Positions 41,779 to 64,000 of a DNA stretch of 64,000 nucleotides are shown in pieces. The notes below the pieces were generated by a model. That model was not told the DNA's origin. It did no database searches and saw nothing but the letters and a program-made list of their open reading frames with translations. The position numbers and the translations under genes were made by a program. The stretch comes from Magnetococcales bacterium. Lineage in GTDB: Bacteria > Pseudomonadota > Magnetococcia > Magnetococcales > UBA8363. The stretch lies in NCBI GenBank assembly GCA_015228925.1, contig JADGCQ010000008.1, forward strand, positions 2,249 to 66,248. The letters are read 5' to 3'. The first letter of the stretch is position 1. Every line of letters begins with the position of its first letter.

Positions 41779-41915
41779 ACTGTACCCACAACAGCTTTTG
41801 CGGTATGGTGTGGTTTTGGGATATGAGTTCCATGCCGCCCGGTTGGGAGTGCGCATGAGTCACGGGAACGTTTTCCCTCCGTCAATCACCATCAAGAGCT
41901 AAACGCATCCTGGTC

Positions 41916-43487: not shown

Positions 43488-43595
43488 ACGGACAGGGTAT
43501 CTTAAGGGTGCGGGATCAACTATTTATTGGCCAGCGTGGCTGTATTGTGTTATTTTCCACGATGAATTAATGTCGGCTTTAAGTCTTCACCTGAA

Positions 43596-44477: not shown

Positions 44478-44484
44478 GTATCCC

Positions 44485-45609: not shown

Positions 45610-45658
45610 AGAGGGCTTCAGGCGTTCATCCCGTCCCGAATCCTCATGGAATCAAGTC

Positions 45659-46552
45659 ATGCCGGTAACACCACCATCCATCCCCCCGATCATGAATGCT
45701 TTTACAGTCGATGTGGAAGATTATTTTCACGTCGCCCTGTTTGAAAAGCATGTTTCCTGCGACCGTTGGTCCACCATGGAACACCGTGTGGAGAGGAACA
45801 CCGATCGGATTTTGGAGATGATGGCACAGAGGGACATTCACGGTACATTTTTTGTTTTGGGTTGGATTGCTGAACGCTACCCAGCATTGGTACGTCGCAT
45901 TTCCGACCAGGGCCATGAAATTGCCAGCCATGGGATGCATCATATTCGGGTCACGTTGCAATCCCCAGAGGTATTTTTCCAGGATGTCCAGGAATGTAAA
46001 CACAAGCTGGAGGACATTTGTGGCCAGCCGGTGCGTGGCTATCGCGCTTCGACCTACTCCATTGGTCGTGATAATTTGTGGGCTTTGGACGTTCTGAAAA
46101 AGGCCGGATATCGCTATAGTTCGAGTATCTATCCCATTCGCCATGATCTTTACGGTTGGCCCGACGCCCCTCGCTTTGCATTTTATCCTCGGCGGGATGA
46201 AAACAAGGGTGATGGCCTCTTGGAGATACCAATCTCGACACTGGAGTGGCTGGGACGACGCATCCCCTGCGGTGGCGGTGGTTATTTTCGTCTCTACCCC
46301 CTCGCCTTTTCCATCTGGGCATTGCGGCATCTTAACAAGAAAGAGGGTGAAAGTGCGGTATTCTATTTGCATCCATGGGAGCTGGACCCTGGACAACCAC
46401 GGTTACCTGGTTTGCCCATGAAGGTCCGCTTTCGGCATTATTTAAATTTGGAAAAAATGGATGCCCGACTGCACTGTCTGCTTGATTCATTACGATGGGA
46501 TCGGATGGATCGGGTATTCGCACATCGGTTGGAGATGGAGAACAAGAGATGA
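45659..46552 (+). CDS. XrtA-system polysaccharide deacetylase
   Basis: TVDVEDYF, TFFVLGW, GHEIASHG, GGGYFRL, YLHPWELDP. Confidence 0.92.
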   Translation: MPVTPPSIPPIMNAFTVDVEDYFHVALFEKHVSCDRWSTMEHRVERNTDRILEMMAQRDIHGTFFVLGWIAERYPALVRRISDQGHEIASHGMHHIRVTLQSPEVFFQDVQECKHKLEDICGQPVRGYRASTYSIGRDNLWALDVLKKAGYRYSSSIYPIRHDLYGWPDAPRFAFYPRRDENKGDGLLEIPISTLEWLGRRIPCGGGGYFRLYPLAFSIWALRHLNKKEGESAVFYLHPWELDPGQPRLPGLPMKVRFRHYLNLEKMDARLHCLLDSLRWDRMDRVFAHRLEMENKR

Positions 46553-47598
46553 GTCGAATCCTCGCAGGAGTCACTGTCCGTGGTATGCAGGTGCAGGACA
46601 GGTCAGCCTGGGACCGGTTTGTTATGACAGCACCACAGGCAACCTTTTTTCACCGATGGGGTTGGCAACAGGTGTTGGAAAAGGCGTTTGGTCACGAAAC
46701 CTATTATTTATTGGCGGAAGCGGACGGAGAAATTGTCGGGATACTCCCGTTGGGACGCATCAAAAGTTTTTTATTTGGTGATGTTCTGGTATCGACCCCC
46801 TTCTGTGTAACCGGAGGTATTGTGGCGGTCGATGGTGCCGTCGCCATGCTTTTGGAGCAGGAAGCGGTTGCATTGGCCCATCGATTGCGTGTGGATCATC
46901 TGGAAATGCGCTCTGCCCACCCCATGCATCCACAGTGGTTGCACAAGGATCTTTACTATACGTTCAAGAAGGACATTTCACCCAATCCAGAGGCCAACCT
47001 GAAAGCGATCCCCCGTAAGCAGCGTGCCGAAGTACGCCGAGGCGTTGATCATGGCCTGACAGGGATAATCGACCCAGATGTGGCGGGAGCTTGTTATGAT
47101 GTTTATTCCGAGAGCGTTCGCAATCTGGGGACACCGGTGTTTCCACGCCGCCTCTTTACGGTACTGAAAGAGGTCTTTGGTGATGATTGTGATGCCCTGG
47201 TGATTATGCATCAATCTCGTCCCGTCGCCGCAGTATTGAATTTTTACTTCCGCGATCAAGTGTTACCCTATTATGGTGGCGGTGTCACCCAGGGACGCGG
47301 GCTTGGGGCGACCCATTTTATGTATTGGGATCTGATGAACCGCAGTGCCAAAGATCGTGGCGTGGTAACTTTTGATTTTGGCCGCAGCAAGGTTGGCAGC
47401 GGTTCTTATGATTTTAAACGCTATTTTGGCTTTGAACCCAAAGCATTACACTATGCATATCATTTGGTCGCGGGCAAAGAGATGCCGGATGTCAATCCCA
47501 ACAATCCTAAATACCGATTATTCATCGACTTGTGGAAAAAGCTGCCCCTGGGGGTCAGTCGAACACTTGGGCCGATGATTGCGAAGAATCTGGGTTGA
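46549..47598 (+). CDS. FemAB-related GNAT-fold protein, XrtA/PEP-CTERM system
   Basis: IPRKQRAEVR, SVRNLGTPVFP, FDFGRSK, NPNNPKY; start placed at MSRIL. Confidence 0.9.
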   Translation: MSRILAGVTVRGMQVQDRSAWDRFVMTAPQATFFHRWGWQQVLEKAFGHETYYLLAEADGEIVGILPLGRIKSFLFGDVLVSTPFCVTGGIVAVDGAVAMLLEQEAVALAHRLRVDHLEMRSAHPMHPQWLHKDLYYTFKKDISPNPEANLKAIPRKQRAEVRRGVDHGLTGIIDPDVAGACYDVYSESVRNLGTPVFPRRLFTVLKEVFGDDCDALVIMHQSRPVAAVLNFYFRDQVLPYYGGGVTQGRGLGATHFMYWDLMNRSAKDRGVVTFDFGRSKVGSGSYDFKRYFGFEPKALHYAYHLVAGKEMPDVNPNNPKYRLFIDLWKKLPLGVSRTLGPMIAKNLG

Positions 47599-47609
47599 AG
47601 GGGAAATTG

Positions 47610-48770
47610 ATGGCCGTTAGCGGAATGGGTGACTCCCAGGGAACGCCCCTCTCGGTTGCTTTGGTACGGCAACGTTATACCCCCTATGGGGGGGCGGAAA
47701 GGTTTGTGGAGCGGGTTGTGGAGACGCTGAGTCGCCAGGGGATGGCGGTCACGGTGGTTGCGCGGCAGTGGCACCCTGAGGCTGGAAATGGCGTTGACAT
47801 ACACTGTAATCCCTTCCATCTGGGACGGTTATGGCGGGATTATGGATTTTCCCGTTGCGTGCAACGCCATTGGTTGGGACGACCGGGATGGATGGTGCAA
47901 TCCCACGAACGGATTCCCGGGTGCAACTTATATCGTGCCGGCGACGGGGTTCATGCGCAATGGTTGGCCTATCGCGCCCGTATGCAAAATCCGCTACAAC
48001 GGTTGGCCACTCGGATCAACCCCTATCACCGTTATCTGCTGGCGATGGAACGTCGCTTGTTTGGTCATCCCGAACTGCGGGCTGTGATCTGCAATTCACA
48101 GATGGTGCGTCATGAGATTCAATCGTGGTTTGAAGTTCCCGATGAGAAGTTGCATGTCATTTATTCCGGGGTGGATACCGAGGCATTTCATCCACATTTT
48201 GGGAAAGAGTATGCCCAAAAAGTTCGATTGGAATGGGGTATTCCTGGAGATGCCACCTTGTTTTTGTTTGTTGGTTCTGGTTATGAACGCAAGGGGTTAT
48301 TGACCTTGCTCAGGGCGATGATGCGGGTTGAGGATGCTTGGTTGCTGGTGGTTGGCCGTGATGGTCAGGGGGAAAAATTTAAACAAATCGCCAAGCGATT
48401 CAAAATATCGGGCCGTATCCGTTTTGCCGGAGGACGTGAAGATGTGCGGCCTTTTTATGCCGCAGCCGATGCACTGGTTCTTCCTACCTTGTACGATCCT
48501 TTCCCCAATGTTGTCTTGGAAGCGATGGCTTGCGGACTTCCTGTGATCACCAGCCATCAATGTGGTGCCTCGGACTTTTTCAAGGAAGGGCGAGCCGGAT
48601 TATTGTGCGACGCCTGGGATGCGGAGACCTTGGCACGGCATCTTGCGGACATGATGGATTCCCGACGACGGCGGCAATTGGGCCAAGAGGGACGCTCCTT
48701 GGCGGAAACATTGACGTGGGAAAGGGTGGGCATCCAGTTGGATGCGTTGTATCGTCGCATCATGGCTTGA
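47610..48770 (+). CDS. GT4 glycosyltransferase (WabG/RfaG-like)
   Basis: YGGAERF, QSHERIPG, RAGDGVH, VGSGYERKG, YDPFPNVVLEAMACG. Confidence 0.9.
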   Translation: MAVSGMGDSQGTPLSVALVRQRYTPYGGAERFVERVVETLSRQGMAVTVVARQWHPEAGNGVDIHCNPFHLGRLWRDYGFSRCVQRHWLGRPGWMVQSHERIPGCNLYRAGDGVHAQWLAYRARMQNPLQRLATRINPYHRYLLAMERRLFGHPELRAVICNSQMVRHEIQSWFEVPDEKLHVIYSGVDTEAFHPHFGKEYAQKVRLEWGIPGDATLFLFVGSGYERKGLLTLLRAMMRVEDAWLLVVGRDGQGEKFKQIAKRFKISGRIRFAGGREDVRPFYAAADALVLPTLYDPFPNVVLEAMACGLPVITSHQCGASDFFKEGRAGLLCDAWDAETLARHLADMMDSRRRRQLGQEGRSLAETLTWERVGIQLDALYRRIMA

Positions 48771-48823
48771 AAGCAATCAATCCCTTTTTCCGGTTTCCTG
48801 ACTCAAGAGGATCTCAGTCGAAC

Positions 48824-49843
48824 ATGCTTACAAAACCTATTGCCGTCGTCACGGGAGGAGCTGGTTTTATCGGCAGTCACATGACGGATCGCCTTTTGGA
48901 TGCAGGGTTTGCGGTACGGATCATCGATAATTTAAGTGGCGGACGATTATCCAATCTGGCCCACCGTTCCAGGAATAGTGATTTATCTGTGGAACAATGT
49001 GACATTTGTAACCTTTCTCAGGACAGTGCCATTTTCAAAGATGCCCAGTTGGTCTTTCATTTTGCCGGTATTGGCGATATCGTCCCTTCCATTGAGCAAC
49101 CTGTCGCATACATGGCCACCAATGTGCAGGGTACAGTCCGGGTCTTGGAAGCGGCCCGCCATGGCGGTCAGGTAAAACGTTTTGTCTATGCCGCCTCTTC
49201 TTCGTGTTATGGCTTGGCCGAGACGCCAACGCGGGAGGATTTCCCCATCCAACCGCAATATCCCTATGCTTTGAGTAAATATCTGGGGGAACAAGCGGTT
49301 TTACATTGGGGCAAAGTCTATGGACTTCCTGTTAATTCCATGCGCATCTTTAACGCCTATGGTCCCCGTGTACGGACCACAGGGGCTTATGGGGCGGTAT
49401 TTGGGGTGTTTTTTCGGCAAAAACTGGCGGGAAAACCCTATACAGTCGTCGGCGATGGTACGCAAAGTCGTGATTTTATTTATGTAACCGACGTGGCGGA
49501 AGCCTTTTTCCAAGCAAGCCAACATGGTCATCCCGGTGAAATTTATAATATTGGTGCGAACAATCCGCGAACGGTTCTGGAATTGGTCCAATTGTTGGGT
49601 GGGGAGATGGTATTTGTCCCCAAGCGTCCAGGGGAACCGGATTGCACCTGGGCCAATATTGATAAAATCACCCAGCATTTGGGGTGGCGACCACAGGTCG
49701 ATTTTCCAACGGGGGTTGCGACCATGATGAAAGATATCGAAAATTGGCGGGATGCCCCCTTATGGGATGTTGACAGTATCGCCGAAGCGACGCGAACATG
49801 GTTTCAGTACATGGACCCCCAACAGTCGGCTAAACGATCTTGA
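48824..49843 (+). CDS. NAD-dependent nucleotide-sugar epimerase/dehydratase (extended SDR)
   Basis: TGGAGFIGS, ASSSCYG, YALSK, FNAYGP; start placed at MLTKPI. Confidence 0.92.
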   Translation: MLTKPIAVVTGGAGFIGSHMTDRLLDAGFAVRIIDNLSGGRLSNLAHRSRNSDLSVEQCDICNLSQDSAIFKDAQLVFHFAGIGDIVPSIEQPVAYMATNVQGTVRVLEAARHGGQVKRFVYAASSSCYGLAETPTREDFPIQPQYPYALSKYLGEQAVLHWGKVYGLPVNSMRIFNAYGPRVRTTGAYGAVFGVFFRQKLAGKPYTVVGDGTQSRDFIYVTDVAEAFFQASQHGHPGEIYNIGANNPRTVLELVQLLGGEMVFVPKRPGEPDCTWANIDKITQHLGWRPQVDFPTGVATMMKDIENWRDAPLWDVDSIAEATRTWFQYMDPQQSAKRS

Positions 49844-51000
49844 TGTTTCCATATCAATCCATTCCCAACCCGCTTTTTCCAGATTCATACATGAACCTTC
49901 CCCTGTCCGAAAAAGAATTTTTTCTTGAATTATTTCGCGGGAAAACCCTGTGCCTCTCCCTGATTTCTTATGAAGGTGCGGAGGCTGTTACCGCGTTTGA
50001 AGCGTGCCTCAAAGAATTGGTCGCAGCGGATATTCGGCTGGTTTTGCTGATTCGGGAGAACGGCCCAAAGGGGAGCCATCGGGAATTTTCCTTTCTGACG
50101 GACCACGATTATTGTTGGCATTCTTCGCAATCCCAGACCCCCCCATCTTTGCCGGCGGATCTGTGGAAACAAAAGTCGGGGATTTTTCCTATATTGATCG
50201 AAGCGGACGATACGGCAACCTTTTTGGAGCGGATTGTTACATTGTCGGTTTCTTGGCGTATTTCGCGGATGATTTTTATCGAAGAACGGGGCGGAATCAC
50301 CGATGAACGGGGTAATTTGGCTAATTTTATTAATTTTAAAAGATTATCGGAACTCAATCATTCCCTGGAATGGGCCGATCAATATTTCCATAAAATATTA
50401 TTGAAATCTATACACACACTTCTTTCTCATGGCGTTGGGGCGGTAGGTCTATGCCGGATGATTGATTTTCAACGAGAATTATTTACCTACGAAGGGTGTG
50501 GTACTTTCTTTTCCTGTAAACATTATTGCGAGGTCAGAGGGTTGGTCTGGGATGATTTTCCCAAAGTCGCGGCCTTGATTCACCAGGGGGTCAAGGAAAA
50601 CTATCTGCTGCCCCGTTCGGAAGAACGGATTTCCAAGATCCTCCTCAATGGTTTTGGTGCCTTTATCGCGATCCATCATCTGGCAGGCATCTGCGGATTG
50701 TTTACCGAAGGTTATGAACAGGACAATGCGGGTGAGGTGGTGGCCTTGTATGCCCTGACCCGGTTTCAGGGAGAGGGTATCGGTGTCCGGCTGGTGCAAC
50801 GGCTGAAAGAGGAAGGGCAAGAAAAAGGATTGGCCTATTTATTTGCCTGTACGCAACAATCCAAAGTGATGGATTTTTTCCAAAGGCAAGGGTTCATCGC
50901 GGCGGCATCCTCCCAGATTCCCCAAGCCAAATGGGATGGTTATGATCCGGCCAGAAAGGATTCCGTCCGTTGTTTTGTCTTCAACCTGAAGGAACCATGA
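49840..51000 (+). CDS. ArgA-like protein: degenerate amino-acid-kinase domain plus GNAT acetyltransferase
   Basis: ELFTYEGCGT linker, LLPRS, FQGEGIG acetyl-CoA loop, FFQRQGF. Confidence 0.7.
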   Translation: MMFPYQSIPNPLFPDSYMNLPLSEKEFFLELFRGKTLCLSLISYEGAEAVTAFEACLKELVAADIRLVLLIRENGPKGSHREFSFLTDHDYCWHSSQSQTPPSLPADLWKQKSGIFPILIEADDTATFLERIVTLSVSWRISRMIFIEERGGITDERGNLANFINFKRLSELNHSLEWADQYFHKILLKSIHTLLSHGVGAVGLCRMIDFQRELFTYEGCGTFFSCKHYCEVRGLVWDDFPKVAALIHQGVKENYLLPRSEERISKILLNGFGAFIAIHHLAGICGLFTEGYEQDNAGEVVALYALTRFQGEGIGVRLVQRLKEEGQEKGLAYLFACTQQSKVMDFFQRQGFIAAASSQIPQAKWDGYDPARKDSVRCFVFNLKEP

Positions 51001-53870: not shown

Positions 53871-53899
53871 TTTCACAATCCTTGAAGGAAATGGAACCC

Positions 53900-56194
53900 A
53901 TGGCACTTTCCATCAATACCAATCTTTCCTCTTTGAACGCGCAGCGGCACTTGTTGGATTCCACCGGGGAAATGAATCAGGTGTTTGCCCGCCTGAGTTC
54001 GGGTTTGCGCATCAATCGGGCGGGAGACGATGCGGCGGGATTGGCCATATCCAACCGCATGACCCTCCAGGTTAGGGGATTGACCCAGGCGGTGCGCAAT
54101 GCCAACGATGGTATTTCCATCTCCCAGGTGGCGGAAGGTGCCTTGGCGGAAACCAGCAACATGTTGCAACGGTTGAATGAACTGGCGGTACAAGCGGCCA
54201 ACGACACCAATACCTCCAAGGATCGACAAAGCCTTCAGGACGAGATCAACCAATTGCTTTCGGAAATCGAGCGGATTTCTCAAGAGACCGAGTTCAACAA
54301 CTGGCCCATGCTCAACGGCAGCATTCTGCCGCTCGTGTTTCAGGTTGGGGCACGCGAAAATCAGACCATCAACGTGCAATTGGCCGATGCCCGCGCCTCT
54401 GTTTTGCTGGCGCAGCCTGGGGTTGCCAATCCCAACGCCAAGGAAAGTCTGCTTAATCCCCAAATCAAGGGGATGCTGGTCAAGGTACCCACCACGATTT
54501 CTGCCGGATCCAAACTGTTTCATCCCGACGTAGCCGTAGGGATTCAGGCCATCACCAATGCCAACGCCACCAGTGCATCCCCCTGGACGACCGACCCGAC
54601 CGAAGTTGCCGATAGCATGGTCACGGCGTTTGGTGCGGGCATCGCGGTGGAAACCGCCGCCGACCAAGCCCTTTCCACAGGGACCGCCACCACCCATGGC
54701 AGTGATATTGTCCGCGCCCTCACCGCAACCGTGACGGTAGCCAACGCCGTGGCGACAGCGGTGACAGCAGCGGGAGGTGCTGGCACCACGACCACCGCCA
54801 TCAACGGATGGGATCTCACCAGTGCCGCCTATGACACCATCGAAGAGGTCGCCAACGCCATTACCGCTTTGGATGCCACCGTGAGTGCGGCGGAAGCCTC
54901 GGTCATCGCCGCCGCCCGGTTTGCCGCCGCCGAGACCAACGCCAGTATTTTGGATGTCCGCAACTCCGCCGCCGCCCGTTCACTCATGAATGCCGACACC
55001 GGCAATGCAATCAACTATTCCCAAGCGCAGGTGGTTGCCGCCGCCAGTTTTAAAGCGGCAGAAAGTTTGACCGGCACCACCATCACCACCCAGATTACCG
55101 CCGACAATCCTGCAAACGTTGCCGCACTGGTCACATCGGGGTTAACCGCAACCAACGTCCCCACCGCCAACCAAGCGGCCATTGCCACGGCGATTACGGG
55201 GGCCATTCCCGGAACTGCCGAGGATGCTATCCGCGCCGCCATGAACGCCGATGCCAGCAGCAATCTCACCAAGGATGAAGCGACCCTGATCGTCACCGCT
55301 GCCATGGCATTGGACGGCGGTTCCACGGTTGCGCAATCGGTGGCCTCAGCCAATGCCACCGGGACCAAAGATAATATCATCCGTCAGATCGATGCCATCG
55401 CCCCGACGACGAGCATTGCCACGGTGGTGGATGTGGCAGTCAATGCCGCCGGAGTCAACGATGTTCCGGTGGGCAATGTGAACGCCGTCATCCGGGCCAT
55501 TGATGCGGGTGTGAGTTTGGGACGGGATATTGAGACTATCGCTGCCCTGGCTATGGCGGCGGATGGGAGTCGTAAGCTGACCATCGACAATGCCAAGGTC
55601 ATTGCCGCTGCCGGTTTGGCCGCTGCCGCCCCAAACGGCAGTACGACCGCCGCCTCGACTGCCGCCAGCAACATGGCCAAGGTGATCAATGCCCGCGATT
55701 ATGCGGTGGCCTATGCGGCCAAATATGGGGCACCCCCGACAGCGGGCAGCATCATCATGGTCCCCGATTGGATGATCGACACCAGCGGCAATACCAAGTT
55801 TCCCCCCAGTCCCCTTATCGATGTGACGGGATCTTCCATCCCCGCCGATCCCACGATTCCATTTTCTCAAACCACCATCACCAACGGGAGCAATCCCGCC
55901 ATGGGGGGTGCGGAGGCGGCAGGGATGATGCTCGCCATCATCAGCAAGGCGATCAACAAGGTCTCTTCCATTCGGTCGGAGTTGGGTTCCATTGAGAATC
56001 GTTTTGAGGCCAACATTGCCAACCTGAACAATGTCATTGAAAACGTCTCGGCATCCCGTTCCAGAATTCTGGATGCCGATATCGCCTCCGAGACCGCCAA
56101 CATGACCCGTATATCTATTCTGCAACAGGCGGGAACCGCCGTATTGGCCCAGGCCAACCAGCAACCCCAATTGGTACTGAAACTGTTGCAATAG
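53900..56194 (+). CDS. fliC: large flagellin (764 aa) with an Ala/Thr-rich repeated central region
   Basis: [34 protein letters not shown]; C-terminal [11 protein letters not shown]...AVLAQAN. Confidence 0.95.
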
Positions 56195-56265: not shown

Positions 56266-59200
56266 TCAGTGATCTTTGTCCAATGCACTGGGAAAATTCA
56301 ACTCATCGGGCATATTTTCAAGGTACGGTGGTGGTTCAATACCAAGACGTTTAAGAAGATCATCCAACAACATCCAATCCCCTTCCGGGGTTACCAGATC
56401 TCCCCGAATATAGGCCCGCAGACACCATTGCAATCGTCCTTCCCGTTTTTCGGGATGGCGGGCCAAATCTTCCAATAACACCCGATCTTCCGGGGTGCTT
56501 CTGCGGGCGATGTGCCGCGCCAGGGCAGACCACAGGGGTTCCGGGCGCTGTAATTTTTTATAATAGGCCATTGCTTGTTGAAATGCCCTGTCATCTCCTC
56601 CCTGATGAAACGAAAGCCGACAGGCATGATGGAATAATTCTATTTCTGGTCCAAAAGGTTCTTTATTAATAGAATCATGTTCTAGCTGCCCATGGGCCAA
56701 CAGAGCGCGGGTGCCTGCACGACCTGGAGACAACACTTCCGTCGTCAACAAATCCAAATGGGAATTCCGCTTTGGGTCCATTTTGATGTCATGCGCCAAG
56801 TCATGCGCCCAGTCGCGCACCCAGTCGCGCGCCAAGTCGCGCGCCAAGTCGCGCGCCCAGTCGCGCGCCAAGTAGTGCGCCAAGTACCGCGCCAAGTCGC
56901 GCGCCAAGTACCGCGCCAAGTCGTGCGCCAAGTCGTGCGCCCAGTCGTGCGCCAAGTCGTGCGCCAAGTACCGCGCCAAGTCGTGCGCCAAGTACCGCGT
57001 CAAGTCGCGCGCCCAATCACGCTCCAAGTCACGCGCCAAGTCACGCGATTTCCTGCTTTCAGCCCCTGGAAATAACCAGCAAAAGGAAGTTTGCCCAAGT
57101 GACAAGGCCAACTCAAAACCAAGAACAAAGAGAAGGTTTTGACCAGAAAACCCCCACTGACGGCGTCTTCCAGGCCAAGTTTGTATGAGAAGACTTTCAC
57201 TCCAACCTGGCCAGATGGAAACACCGCCATTGAGGAGTCGTCCCACGGCAAGCCCCTTGTCCCCCTCTGGGGCATCATTCATGGCGTGCAGGAACAGCGT
57301 GAAGCCAGGGCGAGCATGATCACGCATTGGTTGTAAACCGATCATTTCCAACCCTGTATTCAACCGCTGACAAGCCATCCAATTGGCATTGTTAGCTCCC
57401 TCACTCTGCCATTGGCGCTGAATGATGGCTTTACTCTCCTCTTTCCTACTGACTTTCCAAGCGTCCAACCCTTGATCGGTACCACGTTTCCAATCTTTCG
57501 CCAGCGCAATACCACTCCTCTTAGACCACTCTTTGACATGTTTCAATAAATCATCAGCAAGAAAAGTTCCTGCCAACCATAATCCATATTCTTCATCTTC
57601 GCATAGATGAGAAAATACTGGTTCTAACCGTTCCGGGTTGATATCAGCGACTAGGGCGGCCCAAAGACGTAATGTTTCCCACCAAAAGCCAAGGTGTCTC
57701 CATTGAGCAACCAATACAATCCGCCCTTGATCACCTTCTATGGTAGCTTGCAGATGCCAAGCGGTGAGAAATTCTTGAAAACTCAGATGGGCAAAAGAAA
57801 GTTTATAGTCAGTGCGATCCACCAACACCCCGGCGGGACCAGAAAGCCAGGATAAGAAACCATCCTTATGGGCTGAATCCCAGTCGGACGGTAAATATTT
57901 GGCCATCTCCTCCCAGGATTGCACCAAACTTTTTCTTCCGGTTTTTTCATCATACCCTGTTTCCTGCATCCCATGGGCCAGTGCTGCGACAACACGAAAG
58001 CGTTCGGCCCCAGAATCGGGACGCCAACGATGCCGTTCTCCCCGCACCCCCTCCTGTTCCCTACGGTCGGGCAGTGCTGACAGGAGATTATCCAAAGTGA
58101 CCTGATAAAGCTTGTGCCGACGGTCCGGGAGAGGGCTGGTGCGGCTGACCAGGAGCATCATGGTCAGCAACAAAGCGGTACGGGCCAAATCATGAGCTTC
58201 GGGGGTATGAAACAATCGGTCTATAAATTCTTCGGTCGCTTTTTTCCCGGCCACCTGATCGCTACCATGAATGTGCTGAAAAAAATTCCCGGAGAGTTTC
58301 CTGATTTCTCTATCATCCAGAGGCTGAACATCCCACACCGTAAAACCCTCATTGTAGGTGGGACTATCGCCATACGGACGACTACTGAGAACCACCTTCA
58401 TGCCACTGTTCTTTTTCATGAAAACCAACAATTTTTGACGGAAATCTTGGCCCAACTCCCCCAGTTCATCCCACCCATCCACCAATAAAACTGGAGTAAC
58501 TGTTTTCGTTCTGGCAAACTGAAGGAAAAAGGCCTCTTGCCATTCTTTCAGCCCATATTCCGCCAACCACGATCCCAAAAATGATTCCAGATTATGGAAT
58601 TTTTCTTCGACATTCTGCCAATACCGCGCCAAAGCTCGCAGTTCCACGAAAAACGGAAACGTATCCTCACGTGTTAATAATTGCCGAAAGGTCCACCGCA
58701 TCCAGGTGGTCTTGCCCGACCCCGCCACACCGCGCACAACCAGGGGTTTACTCAGAGATAGCACCTCTTCAGGTTCCAGTGTCTTTCCCTCTTCAAGCTT
58801 ATCTGGATCATATCCCTTACCCAAGCGCAAAGAAACATACATGTTTTCCAGCGTGGCATCCACCACCTTGTCCTTTGCTGGTCCCGACGCAGCTGCCCCC
58901 ACATGGCGCAAATCCCATCGGTCAAAGAGAAAAGCCAGTTTTTCCCGATATGCCCGCAAGAAAGGGGCACTCATGACACTTTCTGGCTGCGGTGCAGCAA
59001 ATGGCCAGTTCTCATAACCTCGAAAAAAAATCCAGGCGTCATCAGCCGATTGAGCTACTTGATCAGGTTTTAAATTGAACAATGCACACACAACACTGAC
59101 CAGCGCATTACCCGCTTTTTCCCAGTTTTCTTTCCTGAAATCGGCAAAAGCAGGCTTACTTTCCAACTTGGTTTTGTCGTCCATCCTAAAAGCATGGGGA

Positions 59201-59559
59201 AAACAATGATCTGGATCATGGATATGTTCAAGCCAATCGGAATTTCCTGCAAAAACACAGGCAATGATCTGTTTATTACCGCGAATCTTCTTAAAATTTT
59301 GAATTTCAAGTTCCACATAAGGGGATTTGGCAGATTCGGGGGTACAGAGGAGGATTAAGAACTCGGATTGTTCTAATGCAGCGACTATCTTTCCATCCAA
59401 ATCGGCCCCTGCGGCAATCTTGGCGGTATCGAAAAAAATAGTTTCATCGTTCAGTTCATTTTTAAAGCGTTCGATGGAAAACAATCGTTTACGCAACCAT
59501 TGGGCTTGGTCGGTATTCTCCCGACTGTAGCTGATAAACGCCTTATATGGAAACCCCAT
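56266..59559 (-). CDS. TIR-NACHT (STAND NTPase) protein with a C-terminal tetrapeptide repeat; putative defence NLR
   Basis: AFISYS TIR box with Glu in SPYVELEI; Walker A GVAGSGKTT; Walker B LLVDGWDE; SSRP; FAHLSFQEFLTA winged-helix motif. Confidence 0.9.
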   Translation of the reverse strand: MGFPYKAFISYSRENTDQAQWLRKRLFSIERFKNELNDETIFFDTAKIAAGADLDGKIVAALEQSEFLILLCTPESAKSPYVELEIQNFKKIRGNKQIIACVFAGNSDWLEHIHDPDHCFPHAFRMDDKTKLESKPAFADFRKENWEKAGNALVSVVCALFNLKPDQVAQSADDAWIFFRGYENWPFAAPQPESVMSAPFLRAYREKLAFLFDRWDLRHVGAAASGPAKDKVVDATLENMYVSLRLGKGYDPDKLEEGKTLEPEEVLSLSKPLVVRGVAGSGKTTWMRWTFRQLLTREDTFPFFVELRALARYWQNVEEKFHNLESFLGSWLAEYGLKEWQEAFFLQFARTKTVTPVLLVDGWDELGELGQDFRQKLLVFMKKNSGMKVVLSSRPYGDSPTYNEGFTVWDVQPLDDREIRKLSGNFFQHIHGSDQVAGKKATEEFIDRLFHTPEAHDLARTALLLTMMLLVSRTSPLPDRRHKLYQVTLDNLLSALPDRREQEGVRGERHRWRPDSGAERFRVVAALAHGMQETGYDEKTGRKSLVQSWEEMAKYLPSDWDSAHKDGFLSWLSGPAGVLVDRTDYKLSFAHLSFQEFLTAWHLQATIEGDQGRIVLVAQWRHLGFWWETLRLWAALVADINPERLEPVFSHLCEDEEYGLWLAGTFLADDLLKHVKEWSKRSGIALAKDWKRGTDQGLDAWKVSRKEESKAIIQRQWQSEGANNANWMACQRLNTGLEMIGLQPMRDHARPGFTLFLHAMNDAPEGDKGLAVGRLLNGGVSIWPGWSESLLIQTWPGRRRQWGFSGQNLLFVLGFELALSLGQTSFCWLFPGAESRKSRDLARDLERDWARDLTRYLAHDLARYLAHDLAHDWAHDLAHDLARYLARDLARYLAHYLARDWARDLARDLARDWVRDWAHDLAHDIKMDPKRNSHLDLLTTEVLSPGRAGTRALLAHGQLEHDSINKEPFGPEIELFHHACRLSFHQGGDDRAFQQAMAYYKKLQRPEPLWSALARHIARRSTPEDRVLLEDLARHPEKREGRLQWCLRAYIRGDLVTPEGDWMLLDDLLKRLGIEPPPYLENMPDELNFPSALDKDH
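56782..57045 (-). repeat. in-frame 12-bp tandem repeat, 22 units, encoding (R/H)(D/Y)(L/W)A
   Basis: Consensus minus-strand unit CGCGACTTGGCG; protein RDLA RDLE RDWA RDLT RYLA HDLA ... HDIK. Confidence 0.95.
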
Positions 59560-59569
59560 GACTCCCCCA

Positions 59570-62500
59570 TCATTTAACCAAAGGTTTGGCTTGCAACGCC
59601 ATCATAATCGTTTCATAACCTGTGGTCAACTCTGAGGGAACTTCCAGGGGTTTCCAACGCCCTTCCATCCTTTGAAGGGCTTGCCGGTTCAGCGTAAAAT
59701 AATCGCCTAAATATTGTCCCTGCTGAAAATGTTGTCTGGCTTGCGATAATTTTCCATGGCGTTGATTGGCCAAGCCCAGAAGAAGATGGATCACCGCCAT
59801 ATCCCGATGGGCATCACGGGGGGCCTGTTTTTCCACCTCGGAAAAGTCGGTCTCAATATGGTTGGGATCCAATAACATTTTGCGAATCACCCGATGGCCC
59901 GGACCAAAATTGGCATCATCCGGGTTATACGCCCGCTCGATACTCTCCCGCTTGATCACCTCCGGCGTCCCCAACAACAACGCCGAATAAATCCCAAACT
60001 TTTCCAACCAACGGGGATTCATCACCGAAGGTTCCAAAAATTCCTCAATCGCCAACGAAGATGCCGTCCATTTGAATAGGGTCTCAAATTGTCCCGCCTC
60101 CCAAAAACTGATCTGAAACATCAAGTGCAACATCGTCTGGTCCGGCATCTCCCGCAAACCATCCAGCACAACCCGCATATGGTCGAATAACGCTTGACTA
60201 TCCCCCCCATTTTCCCACTTGCTGTGAAACACATTGGCACTCGCGGTGACATGATTCAACCGCGATAATTTTTGAAATTCCTCTTTTCCCGATTGTTCCG
60301 CCAAGTGTGATTCCCACGCCGATTTTTCATTCACCTGCTCCAACGCCTCCGCCACCAACCCCATCCCCTGCAACGCCTGCGAATAATTGTCAATCAATAC
60401 CGTATCCCACGGGCGCAACCGAACCGCCTCCTTCAACAACAACGCCCCCGTCTCTCCCAAGCCATTGTCCTTCATCACCTTCGCCCGCTGCACCATCTCA
60501 TCCACGCTCAACGTCCCCAAGTCGGGATGAACCCCCGTGATGTCGGGCAATTTTACATCCTTCAAACCATCGATAAAAATCACCCCCTGAGGCGTCCCCA
60601 AGGCCAAGGTATCCTCACCCTCATCATAGGCCTGACTCAAGATCGGGGTCGTCAAAGGTAACGTGCGATAATTGGCATGGGAATCTTCCAAACCGTGAAT
60701 CGTCAACGATCCCCCCGCATCCCCAGCCAGCAACAAAACCCCCGCCTCGGAATCCTTCCACGCCATCAACGTCGTCGCCGATGAAACCCCATTCTCAATG
60801 ACTTTTTCCACCTTCCAGGTGTTGGTGTTCAACAGCGCAATCTGACCGCTCGCCAACGCCAAAGCGACCCGATTCCCCCCCGGAATCGAGGTCATGTCCA
60901 GGACAATCCCCCCCGGCAACGCCGTCTCGCTGATGATTTTGCGGGTGTTTAAATCAAACTGAATCACCTTCCCTTCCGCCGCTCCTTGCCAGCGAACATT
61001 AACGGCAATCAGAATGCGCCCCGGTGTCGGCAACACAATAAAATTATTAATCTCTCCGGTCACCAGCCACTGGGCATTGTCATGATTTTCCGCCAACAGA
61101 AAATAAGGGGTCAAACCGTTCTCCCCCAGCCGATAAATGCCGCTCCCCTTTTGGCCAAATCGCTGGGATACCACCACAAAATCGGGGGAAACAAAGCCAA
61201 TGAAATGGATGGAATCCCCCAAGGATTGCGCCGTCAATACTTGGTTTTTCTCCGGGTGTCCCGGGACAACCCGTTTCACCTGCCCATCCGCCGTCCCCAC
61301 CAAAAACTGACCATCCGGCAGCACCGCCGCTACCGTCGCCCCCTCCGAACCCGCAACCATTTCCGGCAAACTCGCCTCATCGGCAAACCGTTGCAAGATC
61401 CCATACCCCTTGGCCAAACATTGATGGTCCGCCAATAAGGAAGGGCCAACCATGGCAAAGGTTTGAATCATCCGCGCCTGATTCACCGTGATGCGCTCGG
61501 TCGGACCCTGCAACGCCCCACACACCATGGCATACCATGCGTCCCCCTCCTTCCCCTTCCACAACTGCCGCACCGGCAATACCGTGGGGATAAAATGCCG
61601 ATCTTCCACCGGCAAGATCTCATACACCGCCCCCTGGACAATCAAACCAAACAGATGCCCCTCATCCGAATAAGCCACCTGACTGAACCGCTCCGGGGCT
61701 TCATAAACCATGGTTTCCCGCCCACTGGCCAGTTCCCACTCCACCAAACCCGGTTTACGGTTGGTATCGGGCGGCCAAACCACTGCCACCGCCAAACGGT
61801 TGTCATCGGGAGAAAAAGCCAGGTCAAAAAGCCCCCCTTCCAATTTTTTATCCCATAAATACCGCCCATCCGCGACCCCCACCATCCCCACATGACCATC
61901 ATGGGTGTACCAAGCGACCCAATCCCCCCCATGGGACATCCTGAACTCCGCCGGACGATCATGAATCGGTTGTTGCCAAACCATCCGATCCCCCGGCAAA
62001 TCCCACCGGGTCACCATCCCTGGCCCATAGGCCCAAAAAATAGAATTTCCATCATTTGTTATCGCAACTGAGGCCGACCCCTGTTTTCCGGCTGGGGTTT
62101 TATTCCCCCGCCACACCACCGTCAACGCCCCACCCTGGGCCACATCGTACACCATGATCGAACCATCCTCACACCCCAGCACCAGCCGGTCCCGATCCCG
62201 CGCCTTGGCCATCCAAGAACAAGATTGCCCATGATCCGCCAACACGGTAAACCGCATTTCACCCAACGCAAAGCGGAGCAAACGACCCCGTTTCTGTCCA
62301 AGAATGAATACCGTTTCGCCATCGGTCGCCATCGCCGAAGTCAAGCTCAACCCCGCATCATGATCGGCTTGGCGAATGGACCCATTCCCCTCATAAACCA
62401 CCACCTTGTCTTCCGCCACCACCACCAGACGACCATCACCCAAGACGTGCAACCCTTTGCCGATCAAGGGCCGTTTCAGGTTATAAACCTGCTCGGACGG

Positions 62501-63385
62501 CAAGTGTCCCAGGGTGTCCCACAACCCCGTCCGCGTCAGCCAGTCGGGGTGAATGCCATAGGCATCAAACCCTTTTTTCACCCCGTTGCGAATGCGTCCT
62601 TGGGAAACCTCCAGATGCGCCGTTTGCGTCCATGACTCTGCTAGGTTTTTGTGTGCCTGTTCCAAATTATGGACCGCCTGCCCCTTTTGATACCACGCAA
62701 AGAGACCCAAACCCGTCATGATCACCGCAATCATGACCGACAGCGTGATAGCCGCCTGCATGATTTGGCGGCTACGGCGTTGCTGAAATAGAATCAATCG
62801 CTCCGGGGCCACCCGCAACAAGCTACTCGCCACCCGTGCCAGTTCCGTCCCCCACGCTGTCCCTTGGTTCCAACGAAAGTCGGCCCAGGCCGGTTCATCC
62901 TCCAATTGATTGATCGTCTCCCCCTGGAAATCGATCCGATAACGCAACGCCCGTGGCAGACATTGATCGGGTGCGGGGATCGTTTCCAATGTCTCCCCGC
63001 TGCCCGAAGTGAGCAGAGGTGTCCCTTTGAAAAGACAAAAAATAATGTTTTCCGCCCCACGATGCTGTTTAAAATAACGGATTTCCTGATCGACCCACTC
63101 CGACCGGGCAGCATGGGGGGTGCAGATGACAATCAAAAATTCCGATTGGCGCAGACTTTCTTTAATTTTTTCTGACAAACTTGGGATGGTGCCGATGGCC
63201 GCTTCGTCAATAAACAGCCTGTCATCGGTAATCTGCTCCTTGAACAAAGTCGCCAACTGTATGTCATCCTTGGGCATTTTCATACGCGAAAGAAAATAAC
63301 GAAACCATTGGGCACGCCGTTTATCTTTACGACTGTAGGAAATGAACGCTTTATAGGGAAAAGCGGATAGAGCCATGACGACCAA
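59570..63385 (-). CDS. TIR domain, single TM helix, WD40-like beta-propeller region and TPR-like helical C-terminus
   Basis: AFISYS TIR with SEWVDQEI; TM AAITLSVMIAVIMTGLGLFAWY; blades such as LAFSPDDNRLAV, LVLGCEDGSIMVYD, LLAGDAGGSLTIH; TPR-like VIHLLLGLANQRHGKLSQARQHFQQG. Confidence 0.85.
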   Translation of the reverse strand: MVVMALSAFPYKAFISYSRKDKRRAQWFRYFLSRMKMPKDDIQLATLFKEQITDDRLFIDEAAIGTIPSLSEKIKESLRQSEFLIVICTPHAARSEWVDQEIRYFKQHRGAENIIFCLFKGTPLLTSGSGETLETIPAPDQCLPRALRYRIDFQGETINQLEDEPAWADFRWNQGTAWGTELARVASSLLRVAPERLILFQQRRSRQIMQAAITLSVMIAVIMTGLGLFAWYQKGQAVHNLEQAHKNLAESWTQTAHLEVSQGRIRNGVKKGFDAYGIHPDWLTRTGLWDTLGHLPSEQVYNLKRPLIGKGLHVLGDGRLVVVAEDKVVVYEGNGSIRQADHDAGLSLTSAMATDGETVFILGQKRGRLLRFALGEMRFTVLADHGQSCSWMAKARDRDRLVLGCEDGSIMVYDVAQGGALTVVWRGNKTPAGKQGSASVAITNDGNSIFWAYGPGMVTRWDLPGDRMVWQQPIHDRPAEFRMSHGGDWVAWYTHDGHVGMVGVADGRYLWDKKLEGGLFDLAFSPDDNRLAVAVVWPPDTNRKPGLVEWELASGRETMVYEAPERFSQVAYSDEGHLFGLIVQGAVYEILPVEDRHFIPTVLPVRQLWKGKEGDAWYAMVCGALQGPTERITVNQARMIQTFAMVGPSLLADHQCLAKGYGILQRFADEASLPEMVAGSEGATVAAVLPDGQFLVGTADGQVKRVVPGHPEKNQVLTAQSLGDSIHFIGFVSPDFVVVSQRFGQKGSGIYRLGENGLTPYFLLAENHDNAQWLVTGEINNFIVLPTPGRILIAVNVRWQGAAEGKVIQFDLNTRKIISETALPGGIVLDMTSIPGGNRVALALASGQIALLNTNTWKVEKVIENGVSSATTLMAWKDSEAGVLLLAGDAGGSLTIHGLEDSHANYRTLPLTTPILSQAYDEGEDTLALGTPQGVIFIDGLKDVKLPDITGVHPDLGTLSVDEMVQRAKVMKDNGLGETGALLLKEAVRLRPWDTVLIDNYSQALQGMGLVAEALEQVNEKSAWESHLAEQSGKEEFQKLSRLNHVTASANVFHSKWENGGDSQALFDHMRVVLDGLREMPDQTMLHLMFQISFWEAGQFETLFKWTASSLAIEEFLEPSVMNPRWLEKFGIYSALLLGTPEVIKRESIERAYNPDDANFGPGHRVIRKMLLDPNHIETDFSEVEKQAPRDAHRDMAVIHLLLGLANQRHGKLSQARQHFQQGQYLGDYFTLNRQALQRMEGRWKPLEVPSELTTGYETIMMALQAKPLVK

Positions 63386-63507: not shown

Positions 63508-64000
63508 CTAGCGTACTACCGAAAGTTCAATATTATCGAAAGCGACCTCACCATTGCGGTTGATCAGGGCCAAACCATCAAAGCCGTCGCCGATAGAAAC
63601 ATCGCGTCCTTGCAGCAAGGGGTGCCCATCCAGGCTGACGGTCATGTTACCATTATCGGTCCGTTTCCATAGAAGTTCATGGTTGAATCCATCACCCAGA
63701 CCATTCCCCGGTAGAACCGCAATCGACTGCCGTTGATGGTGGTCGTTGGTGCGGATCAATTCTGCCGTTTTGTTACGGTTGGGATCGGCATTGAGGAGCA
63801 GTTGGTACCCCGAACCAACATCCTCGCCCATGAACAGACCCAATCCCGCCTCTCCCTGGGTCGAATCCAAGCGGATCGTAAAACGGACCTGAAAGGCGTT
63901 ATCGACCGCCACCGGAACATGGATGATGGCTGTCCCCTTTTCCACCCCCCTCCCCTTGGCCGATCCTCCCCCTGGGGTCGTCTGCCGATTCAGCATCCCC
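63508..64000 (-). CDS. beta-sandwich (concanavalin/DUF1080-like) domain protein, probably truncated by the window edge
   Basis: Beta-rich pattern GYQLLL, FNHELLW, MTVSLDG, VAFDNIELS; ORF runs to within 4 nt of the window end. Confidence 0.55.
   Translation of the reverse strand, partial: GMLNRQTTPGGGSAKGRGVEKGTAIIHVPVAVDNAFQVRFTIRLDSTQGEAGLGLFMGEDVGSGYQLLLNADPNRNKTAELIRTNDHHQRQSIAVLPGNGLGDGFNHELLWKRTDNGNMTVSLDGHPLLQGRDVSIGDGFDGLALINRNGEVAFDNIELSVVR

Follow-up and report, generated by a model that had tools for sequence, protein, structure and literature searches.

A bacterial TIR-NACHT protein carries a TIR domain that groups with the TIR of the adjacent TIR-transmembrane gene

Introduction

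TIR-NACHT proteins are already known among the immune receptors of bacteria. According to the accessible part of one survey, the N-terminal effectors of bacterial NACHT (bNACHT) proteins include TIR domains and calcineurin-like phosphoesterases, the NACHT modules bear the signature D[GAS]hDE, and diversification is seen at the C-termini (bioRxiv 10.1101/2022.07.19.500537). Single-gene TIR proteins of E. coli with transmembrane (TM) or TPR parts are reported to be antiphage, and the authors write, in the portion of their text available, that features of Toll-like receptors seem absent from bacterial TIR systems (PMC11350192). A survey of Thoeris types I-XI set aside, in its accessible section, the TIRs of Avs proteins and stand-alone TIR genes (bioRxiv 10.64898/2025.12.03.692087). 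A further principle, described in excerpts of two studies of effector-associated domains (EADs) in conflict systems of multicellular bacteria, is that the same adaptor domain occurs in adjacent genes and acts by homotypic recruitment (PMC7159879, PMC8195603).

Here we describe two adjacent TIR genes, denoted A and B, in a window of 64,000 nucleotides from a Magnetococcales bacterium (contig JADGCQ010000008.1, positions 2,249 to 66,248); coordinates are positions in this window. Taken alone, B is an ordinary TIR-NACHT gene. Its neighbor A is a member of a very large protein family with a predicted Toll-like topology.

Results

Both genes lie on the reverse strand, with the stop codon of the upstream gene A followed, after 10 nt, by the ATG of the downstream gene B. 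Gene A (59570..63385, (-)) encodes a TIR domain, a TM helix, two predicted beta-propellers and an alpha-solenoid, in 1271 aa when read from TTG 63385. A start at ATG 63376, giving 1268 aa, is more likely, because AAGGA is found 9 nt upstream and the public form of the protein has 1268 aa. Gene B (56266..59559, (-)) encodes 1097 aa from an ATG, comprising TIR, NACHT, helical domains, an array of four-residue repeats and a C-terminal helical domain. The intergenic gap (59560..59569, (-)) contains GGGGGAG, the ribosome-binding-site-like motif that a preliminary description of this DNA had placed there, and a gap this short with such a motif suggests that A and B are co-expressed. Around A lie B, a flagellin gene and a gene for a secreted 299-aa protein. 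The last of these, an upstream beta-sandwich gene, had been put forward as a possible third component; its orthologues are found in genomes without A and, in genomes with A, on contigs other than that of A, and it is a conserved bystander.

The TIR domain of A and its C-terminal extension (residues 8-200; 62786..63364, (-)) were delimited by Pfam TIR_2 (PF13676; 39.9 bits, cut-off 28) and by BLASTP to B. A single hydrophobic helix follows (residues 211-232; 62690..62755, (-)), at a position that is hydrophobic in most relatives. Its flanks have net charges of +4 (N-side) and +1 (C-side), which predicts an N-in, C-out orientation, with the TIR inside the cytoplasm and the C-terminal domain outside. 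The AF2 model of residues 240-1271 (pLDDT 72.5, pTM 0.40) contains two blocks built only of beta-strands, and its C-terminus is wholly helical. From this model, Pfam and Foldseek, a first beta-propeller is predicted at residues about 311-622 (61520..62455, (-); model strands 72-383, Pfam 351-534) and a second at about 662-939 (60569..61402, (-); model strands 423-700, Pfam 801-938), the propeller family matches being all below their own family cut-offs. The helical part forms an alpha-solenoid at residues about 954-1266 (59588..60526, (-); model helices 715-1027, pLDDT mostly 80-95). Foldseek likens the modeled ectodomain to proteins with tandem WD40 domains and an alpha-solenoid (IFT-A 8bbg_A, E 2.6e-22). 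Hence, of the architecture TIR-TM-WD40-TPR proposed earlier, the TIR, the one TM helix and two predicted propellers stand; the C-terminus is TPR-like by fold, and no TPR family was matched in A by Pfam.

Like animal Toll-like and IL-1 receptors, A would cross the membrane once, with an outer domain built of repeats and its TIR in the cytoplasm, if the predicted topology is correct, and TLR6 (4om7_A) is a weak sequence match to its TIR (E 0.16). In contrast to these receptors, A is reversed, with an N-terminal TIR in a type II arrangement, and is built of propellers and a solenoid, not LRR or Ig domains; the likeness does not imply common descent of whole receptors, and no adaptor is known for A. 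By description, A also resembles the E. coli antiphage proteins in joining a TIR to a TM or TPR part, as far as the available text of that report describes them (PMC11350192).

The TIR of B (residues 2-170; 59050..59556, (-)) was assigned to the 'TM-type' subfamily by Pfam TIR_2 (41.4 bits, cut-off 28), BLASTP and trees. The NACHT match (PF05729; residues 272-423; 58291-58746, (-)) scores 32.3 bits against a cut-off of 26.7. We read in the sequence a Walker A motif, GVAGSGKTT, at 277-285 (K283 at 58711-58713, (-)) and DGWDE at 361-365. Residues 200-830 are modeled by AF2 at pLDDT about 85-97, with a fold nearest by Foldseek to NLRC4 (8fvu_B, 3.5e-9), NOD2 and NLRP3, that is, the NLR-type NBD-HD-WHD. 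The profile score, motifs and fold agree with the intact NACHT module described before. A 12-bp tandem array of 21.2 copies (TRF; 56793..57047, (-)) encodes the four-residue repeat at residues about 838-923; alignment indels show that its length depends on the strain, and it appears in the model as a low-confidence helix. B shares with bNACHT proteins, as the accessible part of the survey presents them, an N-terminal effector, a NACHT module and a variable C-terminus, and its DGWDE conforms to D[GAS]hDE (bioRxiv 10.1101/2022.07.19.500537). It differs in having a TIR of a subfamily that otherwise precedes a TM helix, and a C-terminus without LRR, TPR, WD40 or FGS, where the four-residue repeats and, at the end, a conserved helical domain stand instead.

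Among the models of PADLOC-DB 2.0.0, those of Avs/AVAST included, there was no STAND match, and TIR matches were weak (E 1e-4 to 2e-3). The pair corresponds to none of the PADLOC or NCBIfam models, in agreement with the earlier remark that it is not a named system. A and B share with Thoeris ThsB a TIR with a conserved Glu, and there is a weak match to PADLOC PDLC00426 (E 1e-4). Membership of Thoeris was considered and rejected, since the scores on NCBIfam ThcB4, whose cut-off is 220 bits, are 16.9 and 19.8; no known Thoeris effector adjoins the two genes, their neighbors being the flagellin and secreted protein genes.

The two TIRs are of common origin. BLASTP aligns A 9-197 with B 3-168 at 72/189 identical positions (38%, E 7e-33), and the shared motifs listed in the preliminary description are present in this alignment. 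The Glu at the catalytic position, likewise reported there for both proteins, is E101 in A (63083-63085, (-)) and E85 in B (59305-59307, (-)). It is invariant in an alignment of 20 subfamily TIRs, and 12/12 subfamily-invariant positions are retained in B. It aligns with the W-x-x-x-E Glu of 7uxr_A and 4om7_A, at weak E values of 0.066 and 0.16, which we take to be the catalytic residue of solved NADase TIRs. The same alignment places a Glu there in the non-enzymatic TLR6, so that the residue is necessary, not sufficient.

In trees the A and B TIRs form one clade (SH-aLRT 99 with 100 rows; 100/99 with 25 rows), nested within a large 'TIR-then-TM' subfamily. The B TIR has a long branch (0.89-0.95) and falls either beside the genus-specific clade of A TIRs, as its sister, or within it. 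An HMM of the TM-type TIR gives 234-241 bits for the B lineage versus 9.5-17 bits for the 11 other TIR-bearing members of the B family that match it. The kinship is therefore closer than the common subfamily claimed at first. The best non-self BLASTP matches of the B TIR are the A clade, at 116-129 bits, followed by others at about 80 bits, and in a search of 1.84 billion representatives the A family came top after B itself (E 6.7e-25, 1.7e-22). Among the best 150 matches to the B TIR, a hydrophobic 19-mer is present in 133 of the other 147, and neither a B-family NACHT nor any GxxGxGK[ST] motif occurs among them (0/147). The grouping 'all A without B' has support of only 78/63, and a topology that joins B to the G000-type A is not rejected (p-AU 0.096). 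With timing weakly supported by the tree, capture from the present neighbor is not proven.

These data bear on the idea that B was acquired ready-made as a TIR-NACHT by horizontal transfer, its TIR resembling that of A through broad family membership. TIR-NACHT relatives do exist in other phyla, with 33-40% identity over 98-99% of B, but theirs are the TIRs that score 9.5-17 bits, and the NACHT half of B is 62% identical to a metallophosphoesterase form in a sister species, against about 40% to those TIR-NACHTs. The joint clade of the A and B TIRs and the lack of NACHT among the 147 other matches also tell against such an origin, which we consider highly improbable.

The best matches to B in five sister genomes start at B residue 186-240. 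B residues 200-1087 (56299..58962, (-)) align at 62% identity with residues 349-1221 of a metallophosphoesterase-NACHT protein of sister species G052, repeat array and C-terminal domain included. This protein (L026:3922-7635) and the relative in G051 (L027:5041-8052) are both Metallophos+NACHT, and genome G000 has a paralogue of B of the same kind on contig C216. Unlike B, these sister proteins carry PF00149 in place of the TIR and have other neighbors, namely RecQ, DUF2887 and MCP genes in G052 and a histidine kinase gene in G051; no TIR-TM gene lies beside the relatives in G052, in G051 or on C216. In the protein collection most B relatives have PF00149, and fewer have TIR, CHAT, PNP or SEFIR. 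B has undergone a domain swap.

Of 56 genomes from the order, four match the A ectodomain strongly, and these belong to a single genus: G000, G051 (59%), G052 (43%) and G055 (40%, cut). A is accordingly found in 4/8 species of the genus. B stands beside A at 0/2 assessable loci in sister species. In G052, a convergent methyltransferase gene and then a GloB-type hydrolase gene lie downstream of A, and a divergent cyclase gene upstream; in G051, the 157 nt between A and the contig end hold an ORF cut after 26 codons, whose start is unlike B. A and B are adjacent in 4/4 MAGs of one species-level lineage, as judged from consecutive accession numbers and equally long contigs, and one 6872-nt public contig bridges their junction. 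As the four MAGs are close kin, the adjacency amounts to one observation.

The wider TIR-TM family has at least 541 confirmed loci in species genomes. A fits it: an N-terminal TIR bearing YKAFISYS.../SEFLI..C.P leads directly into a single hydrophobic helix, and the C-terminal domain that follows is large. Among the best 80 of the at least 541 loci, a B-family NACHT lies within 8 kb in 0/80; there is one TIR gene in 78 and a tandem TIR-TM pair in 2. A hydrophobic 19-mer is present in 65/80 of these best related ORFs, nearly always at the TIR end; 15/80 fall below the 19-mer threshold, at least 3 of them cut by a contig end. Members of the family are predicted to be type II single-pass proteins that keep the TIR inside and expose a variable repeat domain outside, and no description of it was found in the literature searched. 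The flanks of the best 80 loci (147/148 ORFs, Pfam) hold mixed housekeeping genes, for example FGGY kinases, enoyl-CoA hydratases, ribosomal L10 and TonB receptors, and no STAND gene; the largest cluster of related neighbors has 6 members.

Co-occurrence of A and B was not found beyond one lineage, which weighs against the two-compartment module proposed in the preliminary description. That the genes do not co-occur elsewhere had been named beforehand as the outcome that would count against it, and this is largely what we found. The pair looks like a domain borrowed from a neighbor, not a conserved two-gene system.

Between genomes of the lineage, A is 93-100% identical in every region, whereas B is 72-91% identical between the same genomes, and its repeat array 46-74%. 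The TIRs differ between strains by 9-28% in B and 4-7% in A. Two genes 10 nt apart evolve at strongly unequal rates, as where A is 97-99% and B about 81% identical. One 2852-nt contig from an RNA library has one end on the A 3' end and extends 2441 nt past it, a weak hint of read-through there in a relative. Within the A 3' end there is a promoter-like site that would serve B alone; such sites are no commoner here than in shuffles.

The setting of the TIR-TM loci among housekeeping genes and not in defence islands weakens a defence role for A. A might instead be a non-immune receptor of the envelope or environment, signaling by TIR oligomerisation or NAD+-derived molecules, and B an unrelated defence gene that recombined with it. 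The housekeeping flanks of the best 80 loci agree with this, as do the conservation of A between strains, not shared by B, and the yield of only weak ThsB-type matches from PADLOC. Yet the catalytic-position Glu is invariant, a patchy presence in half the species of the genus is typical of accessory genes, and antiphage activity is reported, in the available part of that study, for E. coli proteins in which a TIR is joined to a TM or TPR region (PMC11350192). On balance we think a non-immune A doubtful.

Another reading, in line with the preliminary description, is that membrane-bound A and cytosolic B co-assemble through their sister TIRs, so that sensing at the envelope and in the cytosol would feed a single assembly that cleaves NAD+ or makes a signal; the link would have arisen when B captured its TIR. 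The common TIR clade, with every invariant position kept in B, the short gap with its ribosome-binding-site-like motif, the retention of the pair in four MAGs and the bridging contig, and the hint of read-through are all in its favor. As in EAD pairs, one N-terminal domain is found on a STAND-type protein and on the product of an adjacent gene, a precedent for paired adaptor domains; by that principle, as set out in the excerpts, gain of a neighbor-type TIR by B is what coupled proteins would be predicted to show, and it counts against independence (PMC7159879, PMC8195603). EADs differ, in the same excerpts, in being mostly small helical adaptors with lineage-conserved neighborhoods; A and B share an enzyme-type TIR in an unconserved one. 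Restriction to a single species-level lineage also speaks against coupling, both families being otherwise single genes in varied contexts, and so do the low identity of the two TIRs, the long branch and faster strain divergence of the B TIR and, for what such sites are worth, the promoter-like site for B alone. Coupling is possible but, in our judgement, rather unlikely. A bolder form, that B by copying its neighbor's TIR joined the output of a membrane receptor, so that outside and inside signals converge on one NAD+-consuming assembly, seems more doubtful still.

Discussion

We conclude that A and B are probably two self-contained sensor-effectors, the usual effector of B having been replaced by a TIR copied from an A-type gene. 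The swap itself is plain from the comparison with sister species; the activities, topology, triggers and functional independence of the two proteins we infer. B is an NLR-related STAND protein of the bNACHT type, in a lineage whose normal N-terminal effector is a calcineurin-like metallophosphoesterase. About 348 N-terminal residues gave way here to about 199 residues holding an A-type TIR. The donor would be some A-type gene within the genus, and the neighbor A is the simplest candidate. By analogy with described proteins, a trigger binding the helical C-terminal half of B may release the NACHT switch; NTP-dependent oligomerisation would then bring the N-terminal TIRs together, and the clustered TIRs could cleave NAD+ and stop growth, following the logic of abortive infection. 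In A, a ligand would presumably cluster the ectodomains, with their two propellers and solenoid, and lead the cytoplasmic TIRs to assemble.

B is a documented effector swap, from a metallophosphoesterase to a TIR that groups with the TIR of the neighbor, and it illustrates the way in which NLR-like proteins of bacteria trade their effector domains, and the source they draw on. If the A and B TIRs do not co-assemble, the locus is a clean case of adjacent genes that share a domain without forming a system; if they do, it offers a simple model for coupling a receptor to an NLR. Should the two signals converge as in the bolder proposal, the locus would be a bacterial counterpart of the cross-talk between Toll receptors and NLRs, caught soon after its origin, and bacterial NLRs would, more generally, have a way to acquire partners by taking over the effector domain of a neighbor.

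Organization and domains of the gene pair

Genes A and B both lie on the minus strand. Gene A, encoding a predicted membrane protein with a TIR domain, two predicted beta-propellers and a predicted alpha-solenoid, is an ORF of 1271 amino acids read from TTG (59570-63385), and gene B, encoding a TIR-NACHT protein, is an ORF of 1097 amino acids starting with ATG (56266-59559). As the preliminary description had stated, the stop codon of A and the ATG of B are 10 nt apart and the gap contains the RBS-like sequence GGGGGAG. The ATG at 63376 is the more likely start of A than the TTG at 63385, given AAGGA 9 nt upstream of it and a public protein form of 1268 amino acids. A scan for promoters and terminators was not informative, with 8 promoter-like sites in the region vs 6.1 in shuffles and 16 terminator-like sites vs 9.6. 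One promoter-like site (59601-59629, minus strand; TTGACC, 17 nt, TATGAT, 10/12 matches) lies inside the 3' end of A, 42 nt ahead of the start of B. The search of public sequencing runs yielded seven runs with partial matches, from five studies, with no RNA runs among the partial matches listed; a 2852-nt contig of the RNA library X9 is incapable of demonstrating a single A-B transcript.

Pfam identified TIR_2 at residues 14-120 of A (39.9 bits, cut-off 28) and beta-propeller families at 351-534 and 801-938, all of these below their own family cut-offs. Residues 211-232 form the sole long hydrophobic stretch, with a net charge of +4 in the 15 residues before it and +1 after; the same flanks in three A orthologues carry +3/+2, +4/0 and +1/+1. 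This charge bias favours a predicted topology in which the TIR is inside and the remaining ~1040 residues are outside. For residues 240-1271 the AF2 model, which used 7 alignment rows (pLDDT 72.5, pTM 0.40), consists of a helical stalk, two all-beta blocks (72-383 and 423-700, model numbering) and a wholly helical end at 715-1027. Its best Foldseek matches combine two WD40 propellers with an alpha-solenoid, as in IFT-A subunits (8bbg_A, E 2.6e-22), and also include tandem propellers of the UTP/WDR36 type.

In B, Pfam matched TIR_2 with 41.4 bits (residues 8-106) and NACHT with 32.3 bits against a cut-off of 26.7 (residues 272-423). The Walker A of B is GVAGSGKTT (residues 277-285), and DGWDE (361-365) matches D[GAS]hDE, given as the NACHT-clade signature in a preprint (bioRxiv 10.1101/2022.07.19.500537). 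The AF2 model, built on a 43-row alignment (pLDDT 75.9, pTM 0.71), has high confidence for residues 200-830 and about 905-1085; confidence is low for 833-903 and for the TIR, which few alignment rows have. Foldseek neighbours of the model are NLRC4 (8fvu_B, 3.5e-9), NOD2 and NLRP3; a search of whole B against PDB sequences returned nothing at E <= 0.1. A 12-bp tandem array (56793-57047, minus strand; 21.2 copies, 83% matches) encodes a four-residue repeat at residues about 838-923, modelled as a low-confidence helix, and its copy number varies among strains. Such period-4 runs are a trait of the B family, the NACHT relatives of B, with a median of 5 units and a maximum of 20; B has 19. At least 8 units are present in 32 of 119 relatives, and similar arrays are found in the metallophosphoesterase-NACHT relatives.

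The effector domain of B has been exchanged for an A-type TIR

The proposal that both TIR domains belong to one subfamily was borne out. BLASTP aligned them at 38% identity over 189 columns (E 7e-33), and they form one clade in both trees, with an SH-aLRT of 99 in a quick tree of 100 domains and 100/99 in a careful tree of 25 domains. The stem of this clade measures 0.55-0.79 and the B branch is long (0.89-0.95). Within the clade, the grouping of all A sequences without B received 78/63, and the grouping of B with A of the source-genome type was not rejected (p-AU 0.096). Judged from sequence, the shared origin of the two TIR domains is real.

Both domains also keep the glutamate at the catalytic position, as had been noted (A E101, B E85): it is one of 12 invariant positions among 20 TIRs of the A/B type, B and its orthologues included. 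It aligns with the glutamate of the W-x-x-x-E stretch in solved TIRs (7uxr_A, E 0.066; TLR6 4om7_A, E 0.16), the search of PDB sequences with the A TIR having given weak matches only. The residue would be necessary for an enzymatic reading and insufficient as proof of it, since TLR6 carries the same glutamate.

The NACHT family of B is large in the protein collection; most members have a metallophosphoesterase in front, and fewer have TIR, CHAT, PNP or SEFIR. TIR and calcineurin-like phosphoesterases are among the N-terminal effectors of bacterial NACHT proteins, whose C-termini diversify, according to the NACHT preprint (bioRxiv 10.1101/2022.07.19.500537). The two best relatives of B are Metallophos+NACHT proteins of the sister genomes G052 and G051. 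The alignment of B (residues 200-1087) with the G052 protein (349-1221) runs through the repeat array and the C-terminal domain and shows 62% identity. In G051 the relative lies next to a histidine kinase; in G052 the neighbours are RecQ, a DUF2887 protein and a chemoreceptor. Across five sister genomes the best matches to B begin at residue 186-240, and the B TIR is matched there only by TIRs of A orthologues. The source genome also has a more distant Metallophos+NACHT paralogue (44% identity to B). In this paralogue (L114 557-4540, G000:C216), Metallophos (512-749) and NACHT (924-1082) follow an unassigned N-terminal stretch of ~510 residues, and the protein stops about 250 residues past NACHT, near the contig end.

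An HMM built from TM-type TIRs, those followed by a membrane helix as in A, scored the B lineage at 234-241 bits vs 9.5-17 for 11 other matching TIR-bearing members of the B family. With BLASTP, the B TIR has its best non-self matches in the A clade (116-129 bits, 37-38% identity), and TIR-TM-TPR proteins come next at about 80 bits. When phmmer was run against 1.84 billion representatives, A-family proteins ranked directly after B; among the best 150 matches, none of the 147 other proteins has a B-family NACHT or GxxGxGK[ST], and 133 of them have a hydrophobic 19-mer. The effector found in the relatives, together with the HMM, BLASTP, tree and phmmer placements, therefore identifies B, on sequence evidence, as a native metallophosphoesterase-NACHT protein whose first ~348 residues have been exchanged for ~199 with an A-type TIR of this genus. 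Residues 169 and 199 of B bracket the junction, at the point where A continues into its membrane helix.

The pair was found in a single species-level lineage

Strong matches to the A ectodomain were found in 4 of the 56 genomes of the order, all of one genus: the source genome and the sister species G051 (59%), G052 (43%) and G055 (40%, on a 2.2-kb contig). The weak match in G004 (E 1.3e-9), a fifth genome, is another propeller protein. The A gene of G052 has a convergent methyltransferase and a GloB-type hydrolase downstream, a divergent cyclase and an integrase upstream, and no B. That of G051 has a divergent chemoreceptor gene upstream and only 157 nt downstream before the contig ends, where the opening ORF starts unlike B. 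The B TIR alone, searched across the order, matched only B, three A-type TIRs and three weak candidates, whose genomes (G011, G045, G012) lack a B-family NACHT.

Homologues of A and B carry consecutive accessions in three more MAGs (MBF0602865/66, HAT51237/38, MEO5328643/44), on contigs equally long where given, and a 6872-nt contig from a public run spans the A-B junction. These recurrences amount to one observation, since they come from a single species-level lineage in which A is 97-99% identical. Metagenome scans with B and with A returned pattern matches and no confirmed relative.

For the wider TIR-TM family, TIR patterns found at least 598 stretches in species genomes, at least 541 of which were confirmed (a 7-row TIR alignment was used), and the best 80 loci of the at least 541 were examined. 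They are spread over Alpha- and Gammaproteobacteria, Verrucomicrobiota and Bacteroidota, and A orthologues from Magnetococcales account for two of them. A hydrophobic 19-mer is present in 65 of the 80 ORFs, almost always directly behind the TIR, and the C-terminal parts vary among TPR, WD40 and PQQ-like propellers. A B-family NACHT lies within 8 kb in none of these best 80; co-occurrence beyond the one lineage, on which a dedicated module had been made to depend, was not found by the neighbourhood check. The flanking ORFs are a housekeeping mix (Pfam, 147 of 148; one 2008-aa ORF omitted), in which the only NACHT-profile matches are two ClpB-type AAA+ proteins, below cut-off. No conserved partner of the family emerged from the best 80 loci, the largest cluster of related neighbours comprising 6 loci.

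One TIR gene is present in 78 of the best 80 loci and two in tandem in 2, which are pairs of TIR-TM paralogues (L070 5736-10115, L082 7992-16554). With L072 (5585-11537), where a TIR_2-TPR gene adjoins the TIR-TM gene upstream, second TIR genes stand beside TIR-TM genes in 3 of 80 loci. A divergent DUF1302 gene precedes the TIR-TM gene in three Verrucomicrobiota loci (L037, L045, L046), which may be a clade-specific conserved neighbourhood; an unassigned protein of ~875 aa follows in L037 and L046.

Neighbouring genes

The gene upstream of A, suggested earlier as a third component, encodes a 299-aa protein (63508-64000 and beyond; L003 2214-3113) that has no match in Pfam or NCBIfam and whose N-terminus resembles a signal peptide. 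Counting the source genome, orthologues are present in 13 of the 56 genomes of the order; within the genus, 6 of the 7 other species have one. Among these species, G049, G053 and G054 gave no match to the A ectodomain, and in G051 and G052 the gene is on contigs other than that of A; by this distribution we consider it a bystander.

Convergent to B is a gene for a 770-aa flagellin (53882-56194, plus strand) with a ~530-residue insert separating its conserved N and C regions; flagellin-like matches number 19-24 in each of five sister genomes, many of them in tandem arrays. Downstream of the G052 orthologue (L025, G052:C156, 6751-12453) are genes for a 601-aa WD40 protein, a 3'-5' exonuclease, an AAA_15/AAA_21 ATPase and an M48 peptidase, so that the spot beside this flagellin gene looks variable, in G052 with defence-like genes. 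Synteny was rejected as proof of insertion: the genes downstream of the flagellin orthologue differ in G052, but gene order within the genus is not conserved tightly enough for an empty site to be defined. Further away, an exopolysaccharide cluster (40261-51000) encodes a sugar transferase, Wzz-like and ParA/tyrosine-kinase-like proteins, UDP-GlcNAc 2-epimerase, a polysaccharide deacetylase/DUF3473 protein, a FemAB-like protein, GT4 enzymes, an epimerase and a GNAT protein; behind it lie genes for a DAO oxidoreductase, MnmA and a small cNMP-binding protein.

A and B differ in evolutionary tempo

Comparison of the source genome with two sister MAGs gave 93-100% identity for every region of A; for B it gave 72-91%, and 46-74% for the repeat array, with 28-64 gap columns. 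Between the same genomes A stands at 97-99% identity and B at about 81%, a sharp step across 10 nt. Contigs from public runs point the same way: those over A match at about 97% identity in X1 and 86-97% in X5, and B is mostly without contig cover in both at the 80% threshold, such gaps not being evidence of absence. Below 59568, the free end of one X5 contig resembles, by eye, a diverged B-type start. X2 shows 153/1328 differences over part of B (57020-58347) vs 330/4972 over 58414-63385. The step in divergence could reflect diversifying selection on B or replacement of the B allele by recombination.

A dedicated system or two independent proteins

The pair had been proposed to form a two-compartment module built on a shared TIR assembly. 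The architectures and the common origin of the TIRs on which this drew are real, and homotypic recruitment between adjacent genes with the same adaptor domain is a principle set out in two eLife papers (PMC7159879, PMC8195603). Complex prediction for A 1-200 with B 1-190, run without controls, gave a score of 0.01 and a mark of 0.32, which speaks neither for nor against binding. The pair matches no existing defence model: PADLOC and NCBIfam have none that fits A or B, and nothing came near cut-off for A, B or the 299-aa protein.

Our literature search found no paper on the TIR-TM-ectodomain family or on a TIR-receptor/TIR-NACHT pair; preprint supplements may bear on this. In the parts accessible, a TIR survey describes bacterial groups with TPR architectures and no TM forms, E. 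coli TIR proteins carrying TM or TPR parts are reported as antiphage in a study whose authors note an apparent lack of TLR-like features in bacterial TIR systems (PMC11350192), and a survey of Thoeris I-XI excluded TIRs in Avs proteins and stand-alone TIR genes (bioRxiv 10.64898/2025.12.03.692087).

On the evidence, a dedicated two-compartment system of A and B is improbable in our judgement. We lean instead towards two single-gene sensor-effectors with local capture of a domain, a reading that we regard as reasonably probable. The points worth keeping are the effector swap in B and the contrast in evolutionary rate between A and B.
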